Positions 45,056-63,365 of a stretch of 64,000 bases of DNA are shown one piece after another. Source of the DNA: Aplysia californica. Its lineage: Eukaryota. Under the pieces are notes generated by a model. It was not told the DNA's origin. It did not search any database and saw only the letters and a program-made list of their open reading frames with translations. The position numbers were made by a program, and so were the translations under genes. Every line of letters begins with the position of its first letter. The first letter of the stretch is position 1. The stretch spans positions 1,558,024 through 1,622,023 of the forward strand of contig NW_004797278.1 of the NCBI RefSeq assembly GCF_000002075.1. The letters are read 5' to 3'.

Positions 45056-45191
45056 TTGGTAATAATATATTATATAGATCTAATGCATTTTTATGTTATA
45101 ATTCTATTTTCAAAGAGGTTTATAGTATTTTTTGTCCATAAACAAGGGCCCTCTTCAGCCATGCAGGAATGAAAGTAGTACAGAATATAAC

Positions 45192-45490
45192 TCCCCTCGG
45201 GGCAGTGCTACTGACTGAAGTGTCTTTAGGCCATTACTAAAGGGGGGACATAATTATGTTCTTATGCACAGTAGAATTGTAAATGGGCTGACTCATCAAT
45301 GTCATGCTCATAACTGCCTGAACTACAACGCGGAAATGCCACTTTTTCTTCCCTTATCCTTACTATCATAATTTTTCCTCTACTTCTTTTGTATGTTTGT
45401 CACACTCTTGTGAACAGCTATTTCTGGGGTGCCTTGGCGCTCATATGACCTGCCTCATGCAGTTGCTAAAACTAAAAAAACCGAAACGAA
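45192..45490 (+). mobile_element. Family L copy lacking the internal ~95-bp module
   Basis: Colinear with the other copies; GGGGTGCCTTG joins directly to GCGCTCATATGACC; short TSD AATATAA. Confidence 0.85.
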
Positions 45491-46612
45491 ATATAAACAC
45501 TTTTCCTTTGTGTCCAATGTATTTGTGGAGATCTGTTGGGGGATGTTGTGGGAAATCATCCTGACAAGAGTTAAATTTGAAATGAAAGAGTGCCAGTATT
45601 ACATTGTATTTAAGTAGGTGCCCTACAACAGCTGTGAAGGAAAAACTTGAAGTGACTGTGCCAGAAACTTAGAAATTAACTGGATTAGTTAAGGTCTACA
45701 TGGTCATAAATGTGTTGTTTTTCTTTAAAGAAATAAAATCTTTTCTTGACTTTGATGCGTTCTGTTTTCCTCATAGTTACTTATTCTTAATAAGTGCATG
45801 TTTATTGATAGATATAACTTTTCTGTCAACCACACTTGCGCCAGCCACATTCATTTCAAAATGTAAAAGCTGGCTTGGTTCATACAAGTCCTCTTTTTAC
45901 CAAGTTCATGCTTATTGAAAGATTGATTGTCCTGCTCATATGGTAATGGTAATAGCGTATACATGTATCTGGTCTCACTTTGAGGTGATGCAAGACATGT
46001 TAGAAAATATTATTTTGTAAGTGCCATTCTCTTGTGTCTTGAATAAATGAAGATAACGAATAATATTGTTCCTAGCTTGTCACTGCCTTCATTTATCCTT
46101 TTCTTTTCTCGTAGAACTCTGCCAATGTTTCCTGACCGTTGATTTTGTGCAAGTTCAGAACTTTTAAGAGAGACCTGGGAGTTTGCTGTATTCTGGAAGA
46201 ACATAAATATTTATGTTTATTTCAAACTGGCCAGAACATATTCATATTCTTGGTAGATTTGACGCTTGATTTAAAAAATGCACTAAGATGCTTCAACCTG
46301 TTTTGCAGCTGCAATACTTTTTCTCAAGTATTCGTGCATCTGTTTTTTTGCTAATACAAACTTGAACATGGGACTAAATGTCTTATGAGAAGCCCAGTGC
46401 AATTATTTATGTATGTAGATCTATGTATATATTTATGATTTATATGATAAAATAGATTTTTGTGTATAGCATTACAAAAATTTTGGAATTGTTTGTTTTG
46501 CACTAAGGTTGGGGGGGGGGGGGGGGGGGCTTTCATGCTATGGTGAATCCCAACAGGAAGGGAACTCATCATAAATTGCCAGATCTGAAACATACATCAG
46601 AGATCATGGTTC

Positions 46613-47013
46613 CCCCCCCGGCAGGGCAGTGCTACTAGCTAAAGTGTCTTTAGGCCATTCCCAATGGGAGGATATTTATATGTTCTTAAGCACAGTAGAA
46701 TTGTACATGGGCTGATTTATCAATGTCATTCTCATACTGTGCCGGAACGACATAGGGGGAGCTGCTGCTTTTTCTTTCCTCATCCTTACTATCGTCCTTT
46801 TCCTTTACTTCTTTTGTATGTTTGTCACTCTCTTGTGAACTGCTACTTCCGGGATTCCTTGATAGTCGAAGCTGACTTTTTGTACTGTTGAGGCTACAGA
46901 GGTGAGCAGAGTAAACCTGATTCCCTGTTTGGACTTTTCTGTTGACATCCACCCGTTGGCGCTCATATGACCTCATGCAGTTGCGAGCGCCGTAATACCT
47001 TAATAAAAAGAAA
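46613..47013 (+). mobile_element. Non-autonomous retroelement family L (about 400 bp, no tRNA head), complete copy
   Basis: 14-bp TSD AGAGATCATGGTTC (46599-46612, 47014-47027); LINE-type 3' stem-loop and A-rich tail; homologues at 5301 and 45192. Confidence 0.9.
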
Positions 47014-48689
47014 AGAGATCATGGTTCACCGTTTATTTCTTTGTTTGAATTCTCTCAAGAAACTTATATTATCCTTGGCTGTCCTCATAACCCATCTGTT
47101 CAGGTTTTCCAATTTAAGCTGCTCTATGTCCACCCCTGTTTGCCTCCTATTTTTCCAGTGACATAAAGACGATCAAGGTCTTTTATGTCAATTCTAGTGT
47201 CCCAGAAGCTGCAGTTGCCTATCCTAATTGATTTTATTAATGAGCAACTCATGTGGACTTCTTTTAGTACTACCTCATGAGATGTTTCTGTTTCTCAAGA
47301 TTAGATGCATTATATTGGAACTTATCTTTAGCTTTTGTAGGCTTCATTCTATTCCTGTAGAACACTTAGCATTGGATGTAATAATGTAATCTAGATATTT
47401 AAACTACTGACCTTGTCTGGTCTTTTCACCTTTACTTGCCAGATGACAAACTGGATCCATTGCTCTATTGGATATTACAATAATACAATGCAATCTGTTT
47501 TCTTATTTTCAACAATGGCCCTTTACGTTTGTTTACTTTCAGTCACAGCAGTACCCTATCTTAAAGCAGTTAAAGGTCCTTTTCTGAATCTGCAGTTAAA
47601 ACTGTGTTATCGGCATATCTCATGTTTATATATGTGATATGGACTCTGTATAAGATAGTTTATCTAAAATGGGCTGGATGGATAGTAACCCTCCTTCAAA
47701 ACAATGGAGGTGTCTGACAAATGACATTAACAGTCAATTTGTTCTCTATGAGCAGTCAGTGGGTAGCACTAGTACCAGGACCTGTTCAGGCATTCCAAAT
47801 TCCCATTTCTCTCACTTTTTTATTTGCACAAAGTATGACAGACTTTATTGATTGTTCTATACTGTTCAGAATGTATATATAAACACACTTATCTTTTCTG
47901 TTATCAACCACTGTCTTATCCACAGTTTTATATTTGTGCATATCCAAGAAACATGCTCATTTCTGGTGGCCTTCTGCATGTTTATACCTCAATCGCAAAA
48001 AAACCACCAACATGTATGCATGTATGTTATACTGTAAAAACTATGACAAATTTAAACCTTTTCTTTTCTGTGCACATGTATATGAGTTCATTTAGTCCCT
48101 GAATTGACATTTTGTAATGAAAGGAGAAAATTATTGTCTTTGTTTTGTAAATTTTTGGTGTGATGAATCCTGAAAGTTTGGCCTTGTGGGTGTTTTGGGC
48201 AACTCTTTGTTTTAACTTAAGAAATAATATATTCTATTTTTTTAATGTATTTGGCATTATCTTGTTATAATTATCAAATAGAAATATTTATCCAATTCAA
48301 AAGTAGCTTTCCTGCTTGCAGTGACATGTCTTCTTATCTTTATGCGACTTGTGGCATTATTTATAGTCAGTTTTTAATGCTACAAAAGAGGCCTCTAACA
48401 TAATTTACTTCTGGGCTACACTCTTTTTATTATATTCTGTGATCATTGTACTACAAGTGTGAAAGTGGGCATAAGATTAATCATGGGAGAATCCAAGCAC
48501 AAAAAGATAATCATTAATTGCTTCCACAGTGAATTATTGTGTCCTGTATGCGGAAAGATAATTGTTAGTTTACTCCAATTACAAAATTGTCTTTCAAAAT
48601 TTGATAGGAAAAGGTGTTCATGGACAGTGTCAAATAGTAACTTTTGAACTTTTCAGATATCTTGTTATGGTGAAAGTGATATATATGTG

Positions 48690-49973: not shown

Positions 49974-50331
49974 CATCATCATCCAGTGCCAGATCTGCAA
50001 CTGCAACAGACATCGGCGATCATGGTTTTCCATTCATTCCTTTTCTCGGATGCTCTCAAAAAAGCTACGTTTCCCTGATCTTTCCCTGTTACCCATTTGT
50101 TTAGGTTCCCTAGGTATTTTGTTCTGGACCTACCCCTGCCTCGCTTGCCCTTAATTTTGCCAGTGAGAGCTAAATGTTCAAGACCATCATGTCTATTCAG
50201 ATGTCCCAAAAACTGCATTTGTCGTTTCCTGATTGTTTTTAACATTGCGCGTCCCACGTGGGCTTCATCAAGCACTACCTCATTTGATTTCTTTTCCTTC
50301 CACGATACTCTTAGCAGTCTCTTAAGTAACC
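49974..50331 (-). mobile_element. 3' fragment of an RTE-clade LINE
   Basis: RLLRVSWKEKKSNEVVL...IRKRQMQFLGHLNR...GKIKGKRGRGR is a typical RTE C-terminus; (GAT)n tail; TSD AGCGCTGAT at 49965-49973 and 50332-50340. Confidence 0.9.
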
Positions 50332-51079
50332 AGCGCTGATATTGAAACAAAAAGCCATTCTCGTTCTCTCAGGTGACGGTGTGTTCACCAAGGTCAGCAC
50401 TCGAAAGCGACACGGAAATTTTTATAGGATCCAGTGTGTCTGCACCTTTAGTGTAGATCACAGAATTCTACACTTCTAAGTGAAGAATTCTGTTGTGTAG
50501 ATCTACCTCCAGGTCAATGGCCCTGATGCCTCTTCAGATTTTTTATCTTTGGGTTTTTAACTATTTTAGCAAAATATGGTGGGGCTTTTCTGTTCAAAAC
50601 ATTCCATAGAACGGGTTCCACTTCAGGCACCTGGCAAGGAAAACAGATCTAGATCTATTTGGAAAGGAAATTTTCTAATGGGAGGAGACTCGTTAACGAT
50701 TTCTTCAAAAGAAAATTTATCAGTGTATGCCAGTCACTGTTTATTTCCTTTTGGTTTTGAAGACCTCTTTCTTTCACCCTTTCTTCATCTTATTCTTAAT
50801 CAATCTGGGCGAACAAATTGGTGTAGGGGGGCAAAAGCTATCCTATCCATTTTGAAAGGTTATTTGTTCTATACTATAATGTGTGTTTCAGAAGTGGACA
50901 TTGTGTGAAGATTACCTTTTTATTATGCCCGAACCTATAAATGTCGCATCTTGATGAATCAACCATTTATGTTTTCTTTGTATAATCTGCCCATTAAAAA
51001 GTTATAGAATCCTATCTCTTTCTTAATGTGTTTTGTATTGAATGATTTATGTTCTCTTGTCTTATGTAAACATGTGTCA

Positions 51080-51437
51080 GTGGGTGGTTGGTGGGTGCTC
51101 TGATGTGGTTTGCTTCTTCTTTCCTTTCAAGCATCTATCGTCCTTATCTCCCCTTCTTTTTTATGTTTGTTACTCTCTTGTGACACCTCTAATCTTCTGG
51201 CGCTCATATGACCTTATGCAGTTGCGAGCCCGTAATACCTCTACTAAAACTAAACATGTGTCAGTGGGTGGTTGGCGGGTGCTCTGATGTGGTTTTCTCC
51301 TTCTTTCCTATCAAACATATATCGTCCTGACCTCCCCTCCTTCTTTTTTGTGTTTTTTACTCTCTTGTAACACCTCTAATCTTCGGCACTTATTTATATG
51401 ACCTTATTGTGTTGCAAGTGCCGTAAAACTCTTACTA
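51080..51437 (+). mobile_element. Head-to-tail pair of family S copies of two different tail subtypes
   Basis: AAACATGTGTCA occurs before, between and after the two copies. Confidence 0.9.
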
Positions 51438-52314
51438 AAACATGTGTCATGTCATGTAACAATTTTCTTTTGCATGTGTCAGCAGAGCAAAACTTAACTT
51501 GCTCAATTTCAGTCTTCCTGGTATGATCATACTTCAACTTCAGGTTTCTATTATTTACCCAATTTGAGGAAAGTGTCAGGCCTACAACTACAAGATTTTG
51601 AGTCTTTTCAGATCATGTGGAACACTTTAAATATTTTTGTGTGTGTGTAAGTTACATTTTTATACAAATGGTGAATGGGGGGGGGGGCAACAATTTCCGA
51701 CACATCTTATGAAATGGGTCGTAATTCTTTACATATCTTTCCTCTTCAGTTTTTGTTTCTTTCACTTTCACTTTCATCTTGTTTTCAACGCACCGCTTTT
51801 GTCTCTGAATTCATGGGCTCTGAATTCTAAACAATGTGGTAAGATTTGGAACTGAATTGTACTGAGCTTTGCTCCATTCACTTTGTCATCAACCTATCAT
51901 GAAATAAATTTGTTTTGCCCAAAAGGGAATAAATCCCTTTATAATTTCATAAACTTTTGTCTAAGCTTTATACACCTTTATTGTTCGTTGGTGTGTTTTT
52001 TCATTTGAGAGAACATATAAGGGAGTCCAACTGTCTACTTCTGTTTGCAAGCTGCGTTTGTGAACACGGAGAGTGAACACAGCTAGCAGTTAGCAAGCTA
52101 GGTACCTGACTATTACATTTAGAAATCTAGTATGACATAGCTGACATGTTGACACTGCGGAGTTTCAGTTGGAAGTGGAAGTATGGCAGAACTGTTGCCA
52201 GCTGTCGCTTGTATACGGGGATTTTCTCTTGTTACTTCCTCAAAAACAGTGAAATTTGTTAGTTTTACGTAGCCATTTTCTTTCATTAAAACACTTACTC
52301 AGCACATTGGCCTC

Positions 52315-55417: not shown

Positions 55418-56389
55418 CTAGGGAAATCTGTCATAAGGTCCGATCGGGCAAATAATGAATCCAAAAAGAACTAAATCTGTATCGTAGTCTTTGTAACTGT
55501 GATGTTCCTCGAATACCACATCGTACTCATGGGATGACTCTTCTTGATGTAGGGAGAACTTGCTGGAGGAAGTGGAGGAGATGGAGGAATTACTAGGGGA
55601 ACAGCTACTCGCTAGCAAGTGCTGCATCTCTTCCTGAAGTATGTTAGAAACAGAAGAGTCGTTCAAAAGGCCGGGGTTCAGTGGTGGCTCTTCTACTTGA
55701 TCGCTCAGCAAGTCGTACGTTTGAAAGTTCGGGCTGCTCTCATATGAACCTGCGTCATCAGCTGGTAGGTTTGTATTCGGGTTGTGTCCCTTCCCGTGTT
55801 CGAGTTCCGTGACGTTTTTGATATTGCCCGTTTCACTAGTTATTCCACGGCGGGCATTTGAATATGTTCTCGGGACCTCTTTGGAATCATCGGAAACTTT
55901 TTGCACCTGGTCTTTTCCCTGTCCCAGTTGACTCCATGTCTGTGAAATTTCTTTAAACATGATCAAATTCCGTTCTTTTTCCTCCGTCTGTTCTTCTTGC
56001 CTATTTTTGAAGTCCAGTTCCAACCTCGGAGTTTGTTTATCTCCTTTTCCTTCTTGTTTCAGCTTCAGTCTTGTAACATGTTCTCTCCCATGCGGTGCAG
56101 TGGTTTTGACGTTTTCGTTTGGCGAACTATTGTGGGTGTCCGTCACAATAACATTTTCAGGTGGAGAATGTAAAGGATTGCCCTGGCCATAACGCAGATC
56201 GATAGAACGACTACAATGGGGACACACAAGATGTACATAAGTTTCAAATAATATACCTCTGTTTTCCGCTGAGTTGAACGTTTTTTGTTTTGCAATGTTG
56301 ATACAGATTTGGTTGATCCTGGGTCTAACAATCGGTGTCCGATGGAAACTTTCCGTCATGTTATTCACTTTCTGCAATGTCTTGCCCAC
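55418..56389 (-). CDS. Terminal exon of the unknown gene (VGKTLQKV...VCPHCSRS...PYDRFP*)
   Basis: 324-codon open frame starting at a tgcttgcag acceptor; one CxxC and a Ser-rich tract. Confidence 0.75.
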   Translation of the reverse strand: MGKTLQKVNNMTESFHRTPIVRPRINQICINIAKQKTFNSAENRGILFETYVHLVCPHCSRSIDLRYGQGNPLHSPPENVIVTDTHNSSPNENVKTTAPHGREHVTRLKLKQEGKGDKQTPRLELDFKNRQEEQTEEKERNLIMFKEISQTWSQLGQGKDQVQKVSDDSKEVPRTYSNARRGITSETGNIKNVTELEHGKGHNPNTNLPADDAGSYESSPNFQTYDLLSDQVEEPPLNPGLLNDSSVSNILQEEMQHLLASSCSPSNSSISSTSSSKFSLHQEESSHEYDVVFEEHHSYKDYDTDLVLFGFIICPIGPYDRFP

Positions 56390-59300
56390 CTGCAAGCAAA
56401 CAGGAGTGGGCGGAGTCAGGAGGCTGGTTCAACCTGTCAAAGGAGAAACGCGAGGGGTTTACACGGCACAGGTAAGGTTAACAGTTGCTACGCAGATATA
56501 GATTTGACAATAGTTGTTGGAAGCAGTGACAGGCCCCACAGAAACGGAAGAATTAAATGAAACTTAAGGTGAAACGATTGGCGAGGGCCAAGAATACAAA
56601 TGGCCTGTCTGCTCATGGGAACAAAGTTGTAAATTCTTTAAGTGCATACATTCTTAGCTTAACAAATGTTCTGAATTTTAGCCCATAAACGACATCAAGA
56701 CAATTTTCCTAGCCAGTGGCAAACAAAGTAGCTACGTAATACAATGAGTCCACTCATGTGAACAATTATGAACCTTTTTACAAGTTTGTATTTTTAGTAG
56801 TTTGACGATTTGCCAATGGCGAGAATGAGGCTTTGCCCGTATCTACGTCAGAGCTGTGCTTCGTGGGATCTTGGTAACCAGGATCTTTCAGGCGAGGTGT
56901 AGTGAGATGATCGGGGACATCGACAGAATCAGAAAATGTTCCGTCGTCTTCAGTTTTCGAGATGGCTAAAGCATTTTCAAAATTGTCGACATTTCTGTTG
57001 CCTGAAGGTTCGATGAAATCTTCACATTCTTGACTTTCCAGTCTCACATTGTCTTCACATTCTATCCGTTTTTCTTCGCCTACCTCATTCTGATAACCTG
57101 AGATATTTTCCGTCCCTAATGAACCCTGACATATTTTCAATTCCTCTTGAGTGGGTTCTTCCTTCAACGAGTCCTGAGAACCTACCAGAGATTCACCAAC
57201 CACACTTTTCTCCCCCTCCAGATCGTCCTGACAGCCCACTGAATGTTTCTCAGAGTCAAGAAATGGACAGCACACTGGAGTTTCCTCTGGAGCCGGGACT
57301 TCGTCTTCTGGTAATGGAGTTGGAGAAACCGCAGTGTCGTTCACATTTTCAACAAGGGCAAAGTTTTGATCGTTTGAATTAAGACCAGAATGAGCCGTTT
57401 CAGGATGATCCAGTTTGTTCTTGTGCAAGCTGGGGTCACAGATTTGGTTCTCTACACATACCACAGAAGTGCTACCCGACGCGTGAGACTCACCCACAGC
57501 AAAATCAATGTTTGTGTTTGTTAGAGTGTCCTTTTCAAAACCATGCTCTTTTTCATCTTCTCCGGCACATTCTAACACATTTTGCGAAACTTTTTCGTGT
57601 TGTTCAGCCTCTGCTATGTAGTGGGCCAGCCACTCAGTTTTTAGAGAAGCCTTTTCTTTGTCGGAGTGGTCATCATTGTGCAAGCTCACTACATCTGTCC
57701 CGGTACTTTTATATTCAACACCGTCCTGTACATAGGTCACATGATCAACATTCAAAGTATCAAGATCAACATTGTCATCTTCTTGAACCGAGTGGGCTTT
57801 TGCTTTGACAACTTTTCCCAGTATCCCTCCCCCATAACCCATGAAAAGAAAGTTGTCTCTATGGTCACTTCCTGCTTGGTTTCTCTCTCCCCCACTCAGG
57901 GTATCCGACTGTGTCTGCCAAAAAACGTCTTCGGACTCTTCCACAGCGACTGGTCTTGTTTGTTGTGGTCCATACAGCGTGTCGTGCACGATCGATTTAG
58001 TTGTACGGGCAAGAGATTTGACTTTCTCTAAGACACATGATTCTTCATGAGCCCTATAGACTACAAGACCTCCCGTTACATCGAAAGGACATTTACAGTT
58101 CGGGGAACCAAAGGGCGATTTGTTGGCTGTCTTGTCGAAGTCGGAGCTGTCCTCGCTTTCGGTTCTGTGTTCGTCTGGTCCTCTAGTGCCAAGTCCAATG
58201 TACTCTGCCGTCTCTGAAACGAACAGAGGACATCAAGTCAAGGCACGAGACCCGAGACTAACTTCAGCTTGGACAATGTTATGTTCATTCCCTCCTATTC
58301 TTTGAAGTTCCATAGATCGTAATTCGTAACTATCGATCCACCTACAATGAATGTTCTTTGACTTATAATGAAAGATGGTTTATGAGTTTCTTTTAACTTT
58401 TGACAGTGCTTGAAAATTTACTCGATTCTTTGGAATATGCTGGATGGATCGTACATTCGTCCTAAAAAGGAGTTTGAATTTTTTTGACATTTATCCTCCG
58501 TATAAATATTTGTTGCCCTTTGCTTTCTGTGGGTCACATTAATGATAATACACTGCCAGGATGTTTCCAAGGGAAGTAGGCTTTCAGAGAATGGAATCAG
58601 GAGAATTCACCTGAAAAATATCTGTCGTCGTCTTCTACTGGCTCCTTAGCACTTACTTTCCCACTATTCACAGCGGTGCCAGTGACGTCATCACAGTGGT
58701 CGCTCAGCTGTCACGACAAAAGTGGAGAACATCCAGTGAGCATTTCTTTGTTGGGGTTTGTTACCTTTTCTTGGTTCTGGTCATTTGCCCTTTCCAGCTA
58801 AATGGAATCGGGTCTGCCACATTTTTTACCGATTTTGATGTCTTGTTTGAGATAGCCTGCAGCATGAACCTGCAGCATGTCTTCTAAACTGGTTGACAAG
58901 ACCGTTAGTTTTGGTCTTAAGCTGAATTAGACGCACACGTCAGTTTGCTGATAGAACCGTGACGACAATACGAGAGGAGAAGAAGAATAAATTAAGGTTA
59001 AAAATGAATTTGCTACAAGTTATGAATAATCAGTATTGTGTACTTGCAAGGATGGGTCATCCTAAGAATGCAGCTTTAAAAAACCTACAAAATGTACACA
59101 CACTTTTCTTACCGGCCTAAAGCTCGCTACATTTTCTCAGTCTAGTCCCCCAAACTAGTCCCCAGACCAGTCCCCCAAACTAGTCCCCCCCCCCCCTTTC
59201 CAACCAGTCTCCTCCCACAAACCAGCCCCTTCCAAAAAAAAGTTTACCTCACCCCAAACCACCACCACCCCCTTCCAAACCAGTCCCCCACTACCCAGTC

Positions 59301-62300
59301 GCCACCGTCCAACTGGCAGCCGTGTCACTTACCGGCATCTCCTGAGATTCGCCTTCCATGTCACTCTTGTGCTGGATAGTGTCAGCATCATCAGAGTCAG
59401 AGGACTCACTGGTCTGTTGAGACACATAAAACTCAACCAAAATGGCGTGCAAGGAATATATATATTTATAAAATCAGTTTGTATATTGATCAGGAACTTT
59501 TTTAAGGAAAATGGGGAGGTCTATATGACAACACCAAAGAGGACTTGTCACCTTGTTTAATTAATTGGACTATCACCGAAGGCTACTAAAGTCACCAAAG
59601 ACTAGAATAAAATAATTACCCCTTTTCCTAAACTCGACGCAATAGCAAAAACAGTACATAGTAAAAACATCTGACACCCAACGACTGTCTTGGGCTCTAA
59701 TTAGGTATTTAAATATTTCTGGGAAATACCGAGGAATCTACAACTTGCACTTGTGTGTATAAACTTGTGTTGCAATAAAGTACTAATGATAAGCAACAAA
59801 CTAAAAAACGAGTTGATTTTTTAGGTACACCATAGTGTCATTGTGTCCTACAACGTTGGAATCACAGGATGCACTAATTCACATAAAGTGATAAAGAATA
59901 ACAAAAGTATAGCGTCTAACCACAGGACCACATGAGTTCGACAAGTCAGAGATGGCTCGCCCACTTACACTGCTGTCAGAGTCTTTCTCAACTGACGGGT
60001 CCGGCCTTAAGTTTTCAGTAAGTACCGCGACTCTTGCTCCCAACTCTGAAACCAACCAAGAACAGTTCATTCAACTTTAGTAATTGCGAACGTAAGACTT
60101 TTTAGACACCAAATGAATACTTGTCAGTTTCTTAAAAGCAGCAAAAGATGGGTCGTGAGATAATATAATCAGGCGGGGGATGTGAGGACTCTAGAACAAA
60201 CTGAATAAATGTACACTGTCCGTATAAATGACACTGTCTTCTCTTAAAGCTCATCTTGTAAAGATCAACACTACGTTCGATTTTGATTGGGTAGATGTTT
60301 TACGGCACTATCGACACAATTTTGGTCATTTAAGCGCCACCAGGTTTCACCGCTACAAAATCAGACGTTTTTAATAAAGTCTTTCGGAGCTCGCAACCGC
60401 AAACGATCACATTATCTCTATTATGCTAAAAAGACGAACAAACATTTATAAAAAAATTTGTTGTAAATATGGAAAAGGCTTATTTACATTTGTATATACA
60501 ATACAAATTTCAGTGTATGTATATATACACCGTATGTATATATACACCGACAACGACAATTATACATTTTCACATTTTATTAAACAGTCCAATTTCTTTT
60601 ATATAATTTAAAATTCTTCTAGGCTCTATGATGTCAAAAAGGGTCTTAACATCTTTACACTTAAAATGGAAACGGACATAATTAAAGTCGACACATTCCA
60701 TTAGGATGTGCCGAACTGTGAAACTTGTGTTGCACGCCACGCAAAAAGGAGCTTCCTCTCCTTTGAGCAAATGTTTGTGCGTGACGTGCGTGTGTCCTAT
60801 CCTTAGTCAGGTAAAAATTACTTTTTCTCTTCGTGGTAGAGATAGTGGTTTTCTGGGAGTAAGTTTCGGTTGAATGTAATGGAGTTTGTTGTGTATTTGT
60901 TGATTCCAAATTTGGGACCAGGAGGATGTGATGTGTTCTTTTACTTTTGGTTTCATGTCAGAGAAAGGGATTTTACTATTTTTGTTTTCAGGTAGTTTTA
61001 GAGATTCTTTGGCAAATTGGTCAACGGCTTCGTTGCCATCAATGCCTGCATGGCTTGGAAGCCAAGCTATTGTAATAGTTTTTCCAGACTGATGTAGAAA
61101 ATGCAGTTTAATGATAAGTTTCAAAATTCTGTTGTCGGAGGTGTCAGAGCGCTCTAAAGATTTCAGACATGAGAGAGAGTCTGAAAGGATTAGGAAGGTA
61201 GACTTGGTTGATTGATCTATAATATTTAGGGCCATTTCAAGAGCTGTAGCCTCAGCAGTGTAGACTGAAGCTTCTGGGGGGATTTTCCTTAAGTTTAAGC
61301 TGTGTGGCGATGCAAGGGCAGCAGCTCCTACTGAGGAGTCATTTTTGGATCTGTCTGTAAAGAGTCTCTGCTTCAGGGTATCTATTTATTAGCTGTTTGT
61401 ATGAGTTTAAGTATGTAGTTTTGTCTGTGGACTTTTTGTTGTGTTTTTCAAGACTAGTATCTATGTTTGGTTTGGTTAAATGCCATGGAGGTATGCTGGA
61501 CATGGCAAAGGGCTCGATTATGTCTTCAGAAAAATCAATGTCTTTGAGATCGTTCTGGATTCTTATTCCGAAAGGGCTTACTTTATTTCCTAAGGAGGAT
61601 AGAGTTTTTAGGTCTTCGGGAAGGCCAAAGACACATTTGTGGGCTGGGTTTTGGGGTACTGAGCTAAGTTTCAAAGCGTACTGCAAAGAGAGTTTTTTTC
61701 TTCTAAGTTCCAAAGATGGTTCATGCGCTTCTGCCTGTAAACTTTCTACAGGTGAAGTACGGAAAGCGCCTAGGGCAAGGCGAAGGCCTTGGTTCTGAAC
61801 AGGGTCTAGAATTTTAAGGTAAGACTTTCTGGCTGATCCGTAAACAGGACTGGCATAGTCCAACCTGGAACGGACAAGGGAACGGTAAAGTTTAAGAAGT
61901 ATTTCAGTATCTCCTTCCCATTCAGGATTGGATAATACTTTTAAGGCGTTGAGAACACTCTGACACCTCGTCTTTAGGTCTTTCAAGTGTGGTAGGAAAG
62001 AATTTATTGTCGAAGATTACGCCCAGGAAACGAGCTTGTTTTTTAACAGGAATTTCTCTCCAAACAAATATAAATCTGGTTGTCACACATCTTGTGCGAC
62101 AGACAAAAATGTACACAGTTTGTTTTTAATATGGAAAATTTGAACCCGTGCCCGTTTGCCCAAGTTTCCAATTTATGGAGTTGAAGCTGAAGCTGACGTT
62201 CAATGTGATCCATTTTGGATTTGGATTTATAGCAGATCAGGAAGTCGTCAACGTAAAGTGAGCAGTCAATATTGTTTTGAAGGGTTTTTGTGATGGAATT

Positions 62301-62988
62301 GATTTTGATTTCGAAAAGAATGGGCGATAAGATGCTTCCCTGGGGGACGCCTTCTTCTTGGGTGTGTAAATTTGATAGGGTTGAACCTACTTTTACTTGA
62401 AATGATCGATCTTTCAAAAAGTTTCGTATAAATTCGGGAAGATTTCCGCGTAAGCCCAAGTTATGCAGGTCTTTCAGAAAACCATGTTTCCATGTGGTGT
62501 CGAATGCTTTTTCTAAGTCGAAAAAAATAGCCACAAGGTGCTCTTTTCGAATGAAACTTCCCGAATGAAAGTTTCAAGTCGGACGAGATGGTCAATAGTA
62601 GAGCGATTTTTGCAAAAACCGCATTGAAAATTGGACAAGGAGTTTGAGGTTTCGAGAAACCACATTAGACGTTTGTTAATAAGTTTTTCCATAAGTTTAC
62701 AGAAACAGTTTGTAAGGGCTATGGGACGGTAGTTTGAAGGGTTAGAACACTACGTTCAAAGCTTTTCAAAATTAAAGGAAATAAACAAGCGCTCACTGCG
62801 TTTGAAGGTCTTCGACATAGTCTTCAGTGGAGAGCCGGGTCGTTTTAAGCCAAACATCCTCGCAATTCTCACCAGCGTATTGAATTTCTCCAGAGAAATT
62901 ATTCCAAACTCAAGAGCTTTATCGGCAAGCCAGCTGTGCTGGGAGATGCGAATTGGCTGGGGACAGTACAGTTTTAAAAGCTTGAAAC
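55418..62988 (-). CDS. Uncharacterised multi-exon gene, 5' part unresolved or beyond the window; acidic low-complexity C-terminal region
   Basis: Phase-consistent GT-AG exon chain 62988-62797 (phase 1-1), 60045-59969 (1-0), 59413-59333 (0-0), 58707-58611 (0-1), 58213-56778 (phase 1 to TAA). A further phase-0 exon 56389-55418 ends in TAG. No family recognised. Confidence 0.7.
56778..58213 (-). CDS. Large (about 1.4 kb) E/D/S-rich exon of the unknown gene
   Basis: The frame of ORF 56778-57989 stays open up to a gtttcag acceptor at 58215-58214. Confidence 0.8.
59333..59413 (-). CDS. Internal exon of the unknown gene (TSESSDSDDADTIQHKSDMEGESQEMP)
   Basis: caacag acceptor, gtaagt donor, 81 nt. 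Confidence 0.7.
60279..62745 (-). mobile_element. 5'-truncated, frameshifted non-LTR retrotransposon of the I group (I/Nimb-like): RT + RNase H + C-terminal CCHC
   Basis: NYRPIALT, FFDLEKAFD, GVPQGSILSP and LYVDD RT motifs; RNase H AWLPSHAGIDGNEAVDQFAK; CVAC...HILMEC; 12-bp TSD AACACTACGTTC at 60267-60278 and 62746-62757; lies in an intron of the unknown gene. Confidence 0.95.
62797..62988 (-). CDS. Internal exon of the unknown gene (FKLLKLYCPQPIRISQHSWLADKALEFGIISLEKFNTLVRIARMFGLKRPGSP...)
   Basis: ctttcag acceptor, A|gtgagc donor, 192 nt open, globular-looking composition. Confidence 0.65.
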
Positions 62989-63195
62989 CTGAAAGTGTGT
63001 AAACGCCTAGAGTCAACGAGAACTTCGTATTGTCCAAAAGATTGCTGTATAGTCTTACGAAGAACGAGTTAGTTGAGCATTAACTTAAAATTAATAGGTG
63101 TCTGAAGGCTGGAACGAAATGTTCGTTAACTTTCAACGTGATCATTTATTGAGCAGAAGCTGCTCAAGCGATTGGAAGTTGTCCGAAATTGAAAA

Positions 63196-63365
63196 TTTAG
63201 TTTTAGTAGAGGTTTTACGGCGCTCGCAACTGCATAAGGTCATTTGAGCGCAAGAAGATTGGGTGTTACAAAAGAGTAACAAACATAAAAATAAGGGGAG
63301 ATAAGGAGGATAGTTTGACATAAAAGAAGGAGCAAACCACACCAGAGCACCCGTCAATCACCCAC
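63196..63365 (-). mobile_element. Family S copy, minus strand
   Basis: Reverse complement of the family; TSD CCGA(A/T)ATTGAAAA. Confidence 0.88.

Follow-up and report, generated by a model that had tools for sequence, protein, structure and literature searches.

A high-copy short retroposon of Aplysia californica with a LINE-type tail and a head that may have been captured from a box H/ACA snoRNA

We analyzed a 64,000-nt stretch of the Aplysia californica genome (contig NW_004797278.1, positions 1,558,024 to 1,622,023; hereafter the window), which carries three copies of a family resembling short interspersed elements (SINEs). Variable target-site duplications (TSDs), dispersed copies and scattered 5' truncations identify this family as a non-coding, high-copy short retroposon mobilized by a long interspersed element (LINE). 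From predicted folds and base pairing, we think it fairly probable that its head of ~140 nt derives by capture from a small nucleolar RNA (snoRNA) of the box H/ACA class, whose predicted target for pseudouridylation is U287 in 28S ribosomal RNA (rRNA), and that this head was set on a tail of the Nimb type; this estimate includes a hybrid in which LINE-like first bases precede the snoRNA, and it weighs a low prior against the joint fit of pocket, box and spacing. The SINE is most likely a rare known kind of element in a new form, a real feature that a first-pass annotation of this DNA, which proposed a four-way junction, had folded wrongly.

The three copies that the annotation placed at 5301, 45192 and 46613 are present at 5300, 45191 and 46613, on the same strand and with a common start, and are 82–84% alike in pairwise comparison. 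The family consists of a head of ~150 nt, a C/T-rich body, a tail stem-loop and an A-rich end, ~400 nt in total. The border between head and body falls at ~+150, where a second, 180-nt family with a different short head joins the same C/T-rich body.

46613..47013, + strand: copy 1, the reference copy of the ~400-nt family, with 14-bp TSDs on either side
5300..5686, + strand: copy 2 (subfamily b), within a copy of the 180-nt family
45191..45490, + strand: copy 3, whose body lacks ~105 nt through a deletion between short repeats
46762..46957, + strand: body of copy 1, a C/T-rich tract that includes a T5 run and one small hairpin (common to the 180-nt family), then a family-specific stretch
46958..47013, + strand: LINE-type tail, a 7-bp stem-loop and an A-rich end, matching the 3' end of LINE family B

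A 28-mer from the head, which fits some subfamilies only, has 959 exact matches in the 927-Mb host genome, and a 28-mer near the tail has 2848, with 0 for the controls. Divergence among sampled copies was 4–7%, biased low by the partial use of best matches. Taken together, 28-mer counts and divergence lead us to infer roughly ten to thirty thousand copies. The stretch was also found in 20 of the 24 sequencing runs listed (contigs only). Our sample of 132 loci contained 95 distinct head-bearing copies, of which the 92 without N or a large insertion were used for counts; they fall into four subfamilies, a (37 copies), b (31), c (18) and d (6).

Box H/ACA snoRNAs are hairpin-hinge-hairpin RNAs of 120–150 nt in which the guide pocket, or upper stem, lies 14–16 nt from the box. 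Their genes lie in introns and end 3 nt beyond the ACA, and the RNAs are bound by dyskerin, NOP10, NHP2 and GAR1. Mean pair probabilities over the 92 copies yield two hairpins in the SINE head rather than a junction, and the predicted parts are as follows.

46613..46671, + strand: hairpin A, predicted and weak alone, with the 5' C-run paired to the G-run at 46666-46671, an internal loop and an upper stem
46624..46629, + strand: predicted 5' guide arm GGGC(A/G)G, 5/6 complementary to 28S rRNA 289-294
46658..46665, + strand: predicted 3' guide arm, which most copies have as TTCCCAAA (the 46613 copy differs in the last base), complementary to 28S rRNA 279-286
46672..46677, + strand: H-box position, 14 nt past the upper stem; subfamilies a and c read ANANNA here, whereas b, d and the 46613 copy retain just A-N-A
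46682..46748, + strand: hairpin B, a stack of four helices and the fold with the best support in the head
46750..46752, + strand: ACA triplet directly 3' of hairpin B, 14-15 nt from its upper stem

Read from sequence, the predicted order is thus hairpin, ANANNA, hairpin, ACA, with hairpin B strong and hairpin A weak, and the ACA follows the 3' hairpin. Hairpin B (columns 70-137) has pair probabilities of 0.5-0.75 and folding z scores of -3.2 (a), -2.7 (b) and -1.4 (c); the C-run and G-run of hairpin A pair with a probability of 0.45 over the 92 copies. ANANNA follows hairpin A in 30/37 copies of subfamily a and 14/18 of c (44/55 together), 0/31 of b and 0/6 of d, while A-N-A occupies the position in 85/92 copies overall. 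ACA stands directly after hairpin B in 33/37 copies of a, 30/31 of b and 6/6 of d (69/74), and 2 nt further on in c. Changes between subfamilies mostly avoid the stems, which were defined for this test from one subfamily alone (paired in 2/19, 2/20 and 3/20 changed columns; P = 0.04, 0.008 and 0.24), and two-sided changes between subfamilies were absent from this fold. A full H/ACA descriptor was passed by 7 of the 55 a and c copies, compared with 0 of 2.69 million background positions; its one-hairpin level was reached five times in the background. A hairpin-hinge-hairpin with an H box and an ACA is the layout set out for this snoRNA class in PMC12745780.

The internal loop of hairpin A could form a two-sided guide pocket around an unpaired UN. 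When compared with rRNA taken from the same genome, over four pocket registers, its arms are complementary to either side of 28S U287-G288 (8/8 and 5/6 pairs), at 14 nt, and the 3' arm is intact in 72/92 copies. Over the large-subunit, small-subunit and ITS/5.8S stretch, U287 is the best predicted target in 85/92 copies. The pairing score of 32 compares with 20.6 +/- 2.8 for controls and was reached by 0/400 shuffled and 0/170 slid arm pairs; we found 0 matches in 2.5 Mb of other DNA, 0 in 300 Markov rRNAs and none in antisense rRNA, and 1 of 250 random arms made self-complementary, mimicking an rRNA hairpin, reached the score. The sole arm position that varies between subfamilies is the mismatched one. 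The arms of hairpin B can in turn form a 15-pair two-sided duplex with host U2 small nuclear RNA (L440) around U160, with 1 mismatch and 4 G·U pairs, a result matched by 1/3000 shuffles for that register and the best U2 site in 84/92 copies; with 12 registers and several targets tried, and an unpaired base left by the register, this is a hint only.

Several observations weigh against a snoRNA origin. Hairpin A folds weakly (z ~-1), and its guide arms can pair with each other (0.28-0.36). The fold has no covariation beyond chance (258/500 shuffles scored as high). Subfamilies b and d, 37 of the 92 copies, are missing the sixth and last A of the H box and fail the full descriptor in 37/37 cases, yet were amplified; since they spread with only A-N-A, a complete H box may be dispensable for copying today. 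Arms plus box, with no hairpin demanded, occur in 2.6% of random 150-nt pieces (2.8e-4 with stems), and since the descriptor was written after the element had been seen, its figures overstate the odds somewhat. The 28S stretch, too, had been recognized as a target before it was tested, which adds to that overstatement. The second position of the 5' arm is mismatched, no good rRNA target was seen for pocket B, and the literature we compared reports no pseudouridine at the 28S U287 site. Rfam returned no match for the head at the gathering threshold or at E<=10, a silence that counts for little because Rfam also missed the folds resembling hepatitis delta virus (HDV) ribozymes in loci L184 and L223. 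Nor did four genome pattern searches (50, 50, 6 and 0 loci inspected, the rest judged from the match lists) reveal a parent snoRNA gene, although they would miss a diverged one. In these searches, matches outside the family were about as many as those of reversed-pattern controls, and the ones that we folded had no H/ACA layout; the head motif had 0 matches in metagenome contigs.

The earlier four-way junction fared poorly over the same copies. Its helices have mean pairing probabilities of 0.01-0.09, its closing stem is broken (C·A) in 37/92 copies, and the last two pairs of its third hairpin are kept in only 52/91 and 47/90. The compensatory change read into its second hairpin dissolves on wider sampling, the pair being A·A in 77/92 copies, with 8 T·A and 2 A·T; a single, independent change has thus occurred in each of the 5301 and 46613 copies. 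Covariation for the junction scored 0.053 over 27 copies, a value equaled by 223/500 shuffles, and the junction region folds no better than shuffles (z -0.05 to -0.7, with 10 copies taken per subfamily). In the long hairpin that the annotation placed after the junction, the upper part is real (0.67-0.69 over the 92 copies), but the ACAGTT strand pairs only by way of a 3-nt insertion private to the 5301 copy. In six copies the whole head reaches z -0.3 to -2.0, whereas LINE family B reaches -5.8 at its 5' end. RNAalifold gave four different folds by subfamily, and we did not use that result.

The boundaries of the element are sharp. The 14-bp TSD claimed earlier is indeed there:

46599..46612, + strand: left TSD, 14 bp, repeated at 47014..47027
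47014..47027, + strand: right TSD, 14 bp, repeat of 46599..46612

TSD-like repeats flank 42/76 complete copies, compared with 7/76 when flanks are mismatched, and put the start of the element at (A)CCCCCC; the sequences 5' of the C-run are unrelated between copies. Because the TSD-tested copies had been picked by their heads, we also took 30 copies by tail alone: of these, 17 have the C-run at their start, 1 extends to GGGC but lacks the C-run, 10 are shortened at scattered points, 2 abut N and 0 run on into a LINE. The fixed 5' end that the annotation had proposed is therefore upheld by unrelated flanks, TSDs and the tail-picked starts, and ragged ends reaching upstream into a longer LINE were seen in 0 of the 28 informative copies. 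None of the 95 head-picked copies continues into an open reading frame (ORF).

The other end of the element points to its partner. We searched the genome with a LINE from the window and recovered two families, A and B, with an intact 1226-aa ORF2 (endonuclease, reverse transcriptase, RNase H) and an ORF1.

60280..62815, - strand: 5'-truncated, frameshifted I-group LINE of family A, related to family B, the likely partner

The SINE tail is 93% identical to the 3' end of family B over 44 nt (E = 2.5e-9), where the likeness stops, and the SINE is likely copied by this I-group, Nimb-like family of the same genome; we infer the clade label Nimb from the domain layout and the tail type. The family bears none of the marks of a classical SINE transcribed by RNA polymerase III (Pol III). 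It has no tRNA, 5S or 7SL head, and the internal promoter boxes are missing, as the annotation had said (A box in 0/90 copies, B box in 1/90), while an internal T5 is present in 79/90. Part of the earlier interpretation stands, namely a LINE-dependent element with no Pol III promoter, a discrete 5' end and a structured head; the fold and its covariation do not. Among the three origins offered there for the head, captured noncoding RNA is favored, the ribozyme is not supported, and promoter RNA stays as the main rival.

That rival holds that the head is the 5'-untranslated region (UTR) module of an unfound I-group LINE family, of the LP-SINE or bipartite type, serving inside the element as a Pol II promoter or as a signal for the start site, and that the H/ACA features arose by chance; we consider this rather unlikely. 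It draws on observations that also count against a snoRNA: full-length LINEs of families A and B start with ACCCCC directly after the TSD, as the SINE does, and 13 nt spanning the G-run and the H box (G6-ATAT) match the A/B 5' ends (G6-ATATAA) at p ~0.03, though in subfamily a only and in 2/36 comparisons. I-group LINEs from outside the host genome, recovered as animal DNA from metagenomes and bins, differ in their 5' modules, most of which start with a C-run, as in L184, L187, L223 and L268, and LP heads begin in the same way. The internal T5 counts in its favor, LP-SINEs have been described in molluscs (PMC4758252), and template jumps do capture 5'-UTR pieces in this genome, with 356-388 nt of family A 5' UTR lying ahead of a full-length LINE inside one TSD (L066:2046-2432; L062, oriented 1971-2326); the near-equal lengths of these two jumps point to a well-defined short RNA or to a favored site for such jumps. 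Against a LINE origin, the head shares the C-run start but no extended likeness with the LINE 5' ends compared: blastn, nhmmer and a covariance model gave no significant likeness to the 5' ends of A, B, the LP element or 117 external loci. Searches with RNase H, endonuclease and ORF1 for a LINE carrying the SINE head gave only A and B among the matches opened (12 + 20 loci), and a search for further families by a Nimb 5'-UTR motif gave 2 matches, compared with 2 in the control. The lack of any head-picked copy running on into an ORF tells the same way, and chance leaves the rRNA complementarity and the correctly spaced boxes unexplained.

Self-cleavage of the 5' part, either by an HDV-like ribozyme in which the head forms a long insert in J1/2 or by an undescribed ribozyme class, would also fix a 5' end, and some I-group LINEs (L187) do have a canonical HDV-like fold starting with R and a C-run. 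We nevertheless hold it very improbable for the SINE. A loose HDV descriptor matches 30/90 copies, against ~2% of shuffles, but these copies are one family and so a single event at p ~0.02, and the P1 in question has 5 pairs, 3-4 of them G·U, and begins after the C-run rather than at the element start. Ribozymes of the HDV kind are nested double pseudoknots that have P1 at the 5' end and C-N-R-A in J4/2. A strict HDV descriptor that found the L187 control matched 0/90 copies, and the hammerhead core CUGANGA occurred in 0/90 (first 180 nt), which together with the missing covariation speaks against cleavage. No more credible is a tRNA-type Pol III head that has decayed completely, or a conserved break point within a longer LINE 3' UTR. 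Most SINE heads are tRNA-derived according to PMC7245038, and subfamily b has an 8/10 likeness to a B box by eye; the box and T5 counts above and the lack of any tRNA oppose the first version, while the tail-picked copies and the end of the family B likeness at 44 nt oppose the second, and both are largely refuted.

If the head is a captured snoRNA, its history can be sketched as follows. The reverse transcriptase of a LINE would have switched template from the RNA of an older body-plus-tail SINE to the snoRNA, creating the chimera. Template jumps that place RNA pieces ahead of LINEs, seen in this genome at L066 and L062, speak for this reading as well; the ACCCCC match to the partner LINE's start may have favored this particular snoRNA, or those bases may have come from the LINE. 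Master copies lying sense in introns would be transcribed by Pol II along with the host gene, and after splicing, 5'-3' trimming would halt at the foot of hairpin A, where H/ACA proteins and the C6/G6 stem would hold the RNA, giving a fixed start with neither promoter nor ribozyme. RNAs not trimmed at their 3' side back to the ACA would retain the tail stem-loop, and ORF2p of family B could reverse-transcribe them at nicked targets. Retrocopies of snoRNAs (PMC1687206) likewise start at the mature snoRNA 5' end and carry extra 3' sequence. A bolder extension, which we regard as doubtful, is that the SINE reproduces as a snoRNA in this invertebrate: sense intronic copies would be processed on dyskerin into guides that still modify 28S U287, and perhaps U2 U160, with the parasite having taken over or replaced the host guide gene. 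Were that so, no separate parent would be expected to turn up.

The 5' ends of the LINEs themselves deserve note. L187:1070-1215 and L184:1-150, the 5' ends of two-ORF I-group LINEs, fit the canonical HDV-like ribozyme, with a 7-bp P1, P3, L3, P1.1, J4/2 and P2 in a fold that Rfam misses, and L223:2174 is similar by eye; in the available part of PMC5786205, the LINE clades listed with HDV-like ribozymes are R2, RTE and Ingi/L1Tc, a list without Nimb. Families A and B share a structured 5' domain of ~145 nt (L061:2260-2410 and, on the minus strand, L065; z -5.8 for B), with, by eye, two-sided changes in the third hairpin and a possible pseudoknot between a loop and the 3' end, and this domain is a better candidate for a ribozyme or promoter RNA than the SINE head. 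The LP head of Matetovici 2016 begins a long element in the host genome (L300-L329; 256 exact motif matches) and occurs also at L268, L196, L285, L265 and L205; its stems and possible pseudoknot appear by eye to covary across families, making it a candidate ribozyme. Many prokaryote genome records (L263-L298), mostly bins from animal hosts, are contaminated with animal LINE contigs.

Elsewhere in the window, copies of the 180-nt family lie at 5028-5195, 5221-5294, 51088-51250, 51265-51440 and 63195-63365 (- strand), among others. This family starts sharply at GTGGGTGG with no C-run, lacks Pol III boxes by eye, has two tail variants and gave 41 distinct matches in the collected loci. SINE copies are often nested in it (window 5300, L015, L080). 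At L064 (C253:289200-298700), a 5'-truncated family A LINE is inserted, with a duplication, at about position 240 of a SINE copy. Positions ~19180-27900 and 29414-38000 of the window form a tandem duplication with a period of ~10,230 bases, evident from identical ORFs and repeat matches at that offset. At 49979-50368 (- strand) lies a fragment that we take to resemble the C-terminal part of an RTE-type ORF, with no Pfam match. Two long acidic ORFs of 336 and 484 aa (55418-56428 and 56778-58232, - strand), also with no match in Pfam, are probably large exons of a host gene, and the SINE copies lie on the opposite strand.

In the parts of the literature available to us, which bound the comparisons that follow, the origin of a discrete 5' end in SINEs lacking Pol III promoters is stated to be open both for SINEU (PMC4494074) and for LP-SINEs (PMC4758252). 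A snoRNA head, if true, would supply a third route besides internal promoters and ribozymes, namely borrowed intron transcription and protected trimming, and it predicts a specific rRNA pseudouridine; should the head prove to be a LINE module instead, it would be a further LP-type head, a smaller result. Neither the SINE family nor its rRNA target is described in the literature that we compared, a set that stands apart from Repbase and Dfam, and three motifs of the family are absent from three of the four supplements of PMC4758252, where the family is also not shown in the text outside the Fig. 3 alignment.

The closest parallel is PlatSINE1/snoRTE of the platypus, a snoRNA-headed SINE (PMC7245038, PMC4233971) and the sole such family in the literature compared; an independent invertebrate case on another LINE clade, if true, would make this a recurring design. 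As in snoRTE, a 5' part putatively derived from an H/ACA snoRNA is joined to a LINE-derived 3' part in a uniform chimera of many copies. The Aplysia SINE works like the platypus family but is not a member of it: its 3' part is of the I-group/Nimb type, from an RNase H-bearing two-ORF LINE, rather than RTE-derived, its host is an invertebrate, a C/T-rich body common to another SINE lies in between, and the snoRNA parent of its head is putative. Mammalian snoRTs of types 1-3 (Weber 2006, PMC1687206), which can be processed when sense in an intron, resemble it in their mature 5' start, extra 3' sequence and ~14-bp TSDs; they are low-copy, L1-made and poly(A)-tailed, whereas the Aplysia family propagates itself, comprises subfamilies and carries a specific LINE tail. 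With the LP-SINEs of gastropods and bivalves (Matetovici et al. 2016, PMC4758252) it has in common the lack of a tRNA head, the C-run start, a C/T-rich tract after the head, TSDs, an ACTAAA-type end and a link to Nimb LINEs; the LP core motif is absent from its head, however, and LP heads sit on another, long element in the host genome, and a covariance model of LP heads (only 5 pairs, low information) gave no significant match on the SINE heads. HDV-like ribozymes of LINEs (PMC5786205) occupy the same 5'-end slot, with L187 as an I-group case, although the SINE head fails the strict descriptor. Crocodilian SINEU (Kojima 2015, PMC4494074) also combines a small-RNA head, with no internal Pol III promoter, and an internal oligo-T, but its heads are U1 and U2 and its partners Tx1, where the Aplysia SINE pairs a putative H/ACA head with a Nimb-type tail.
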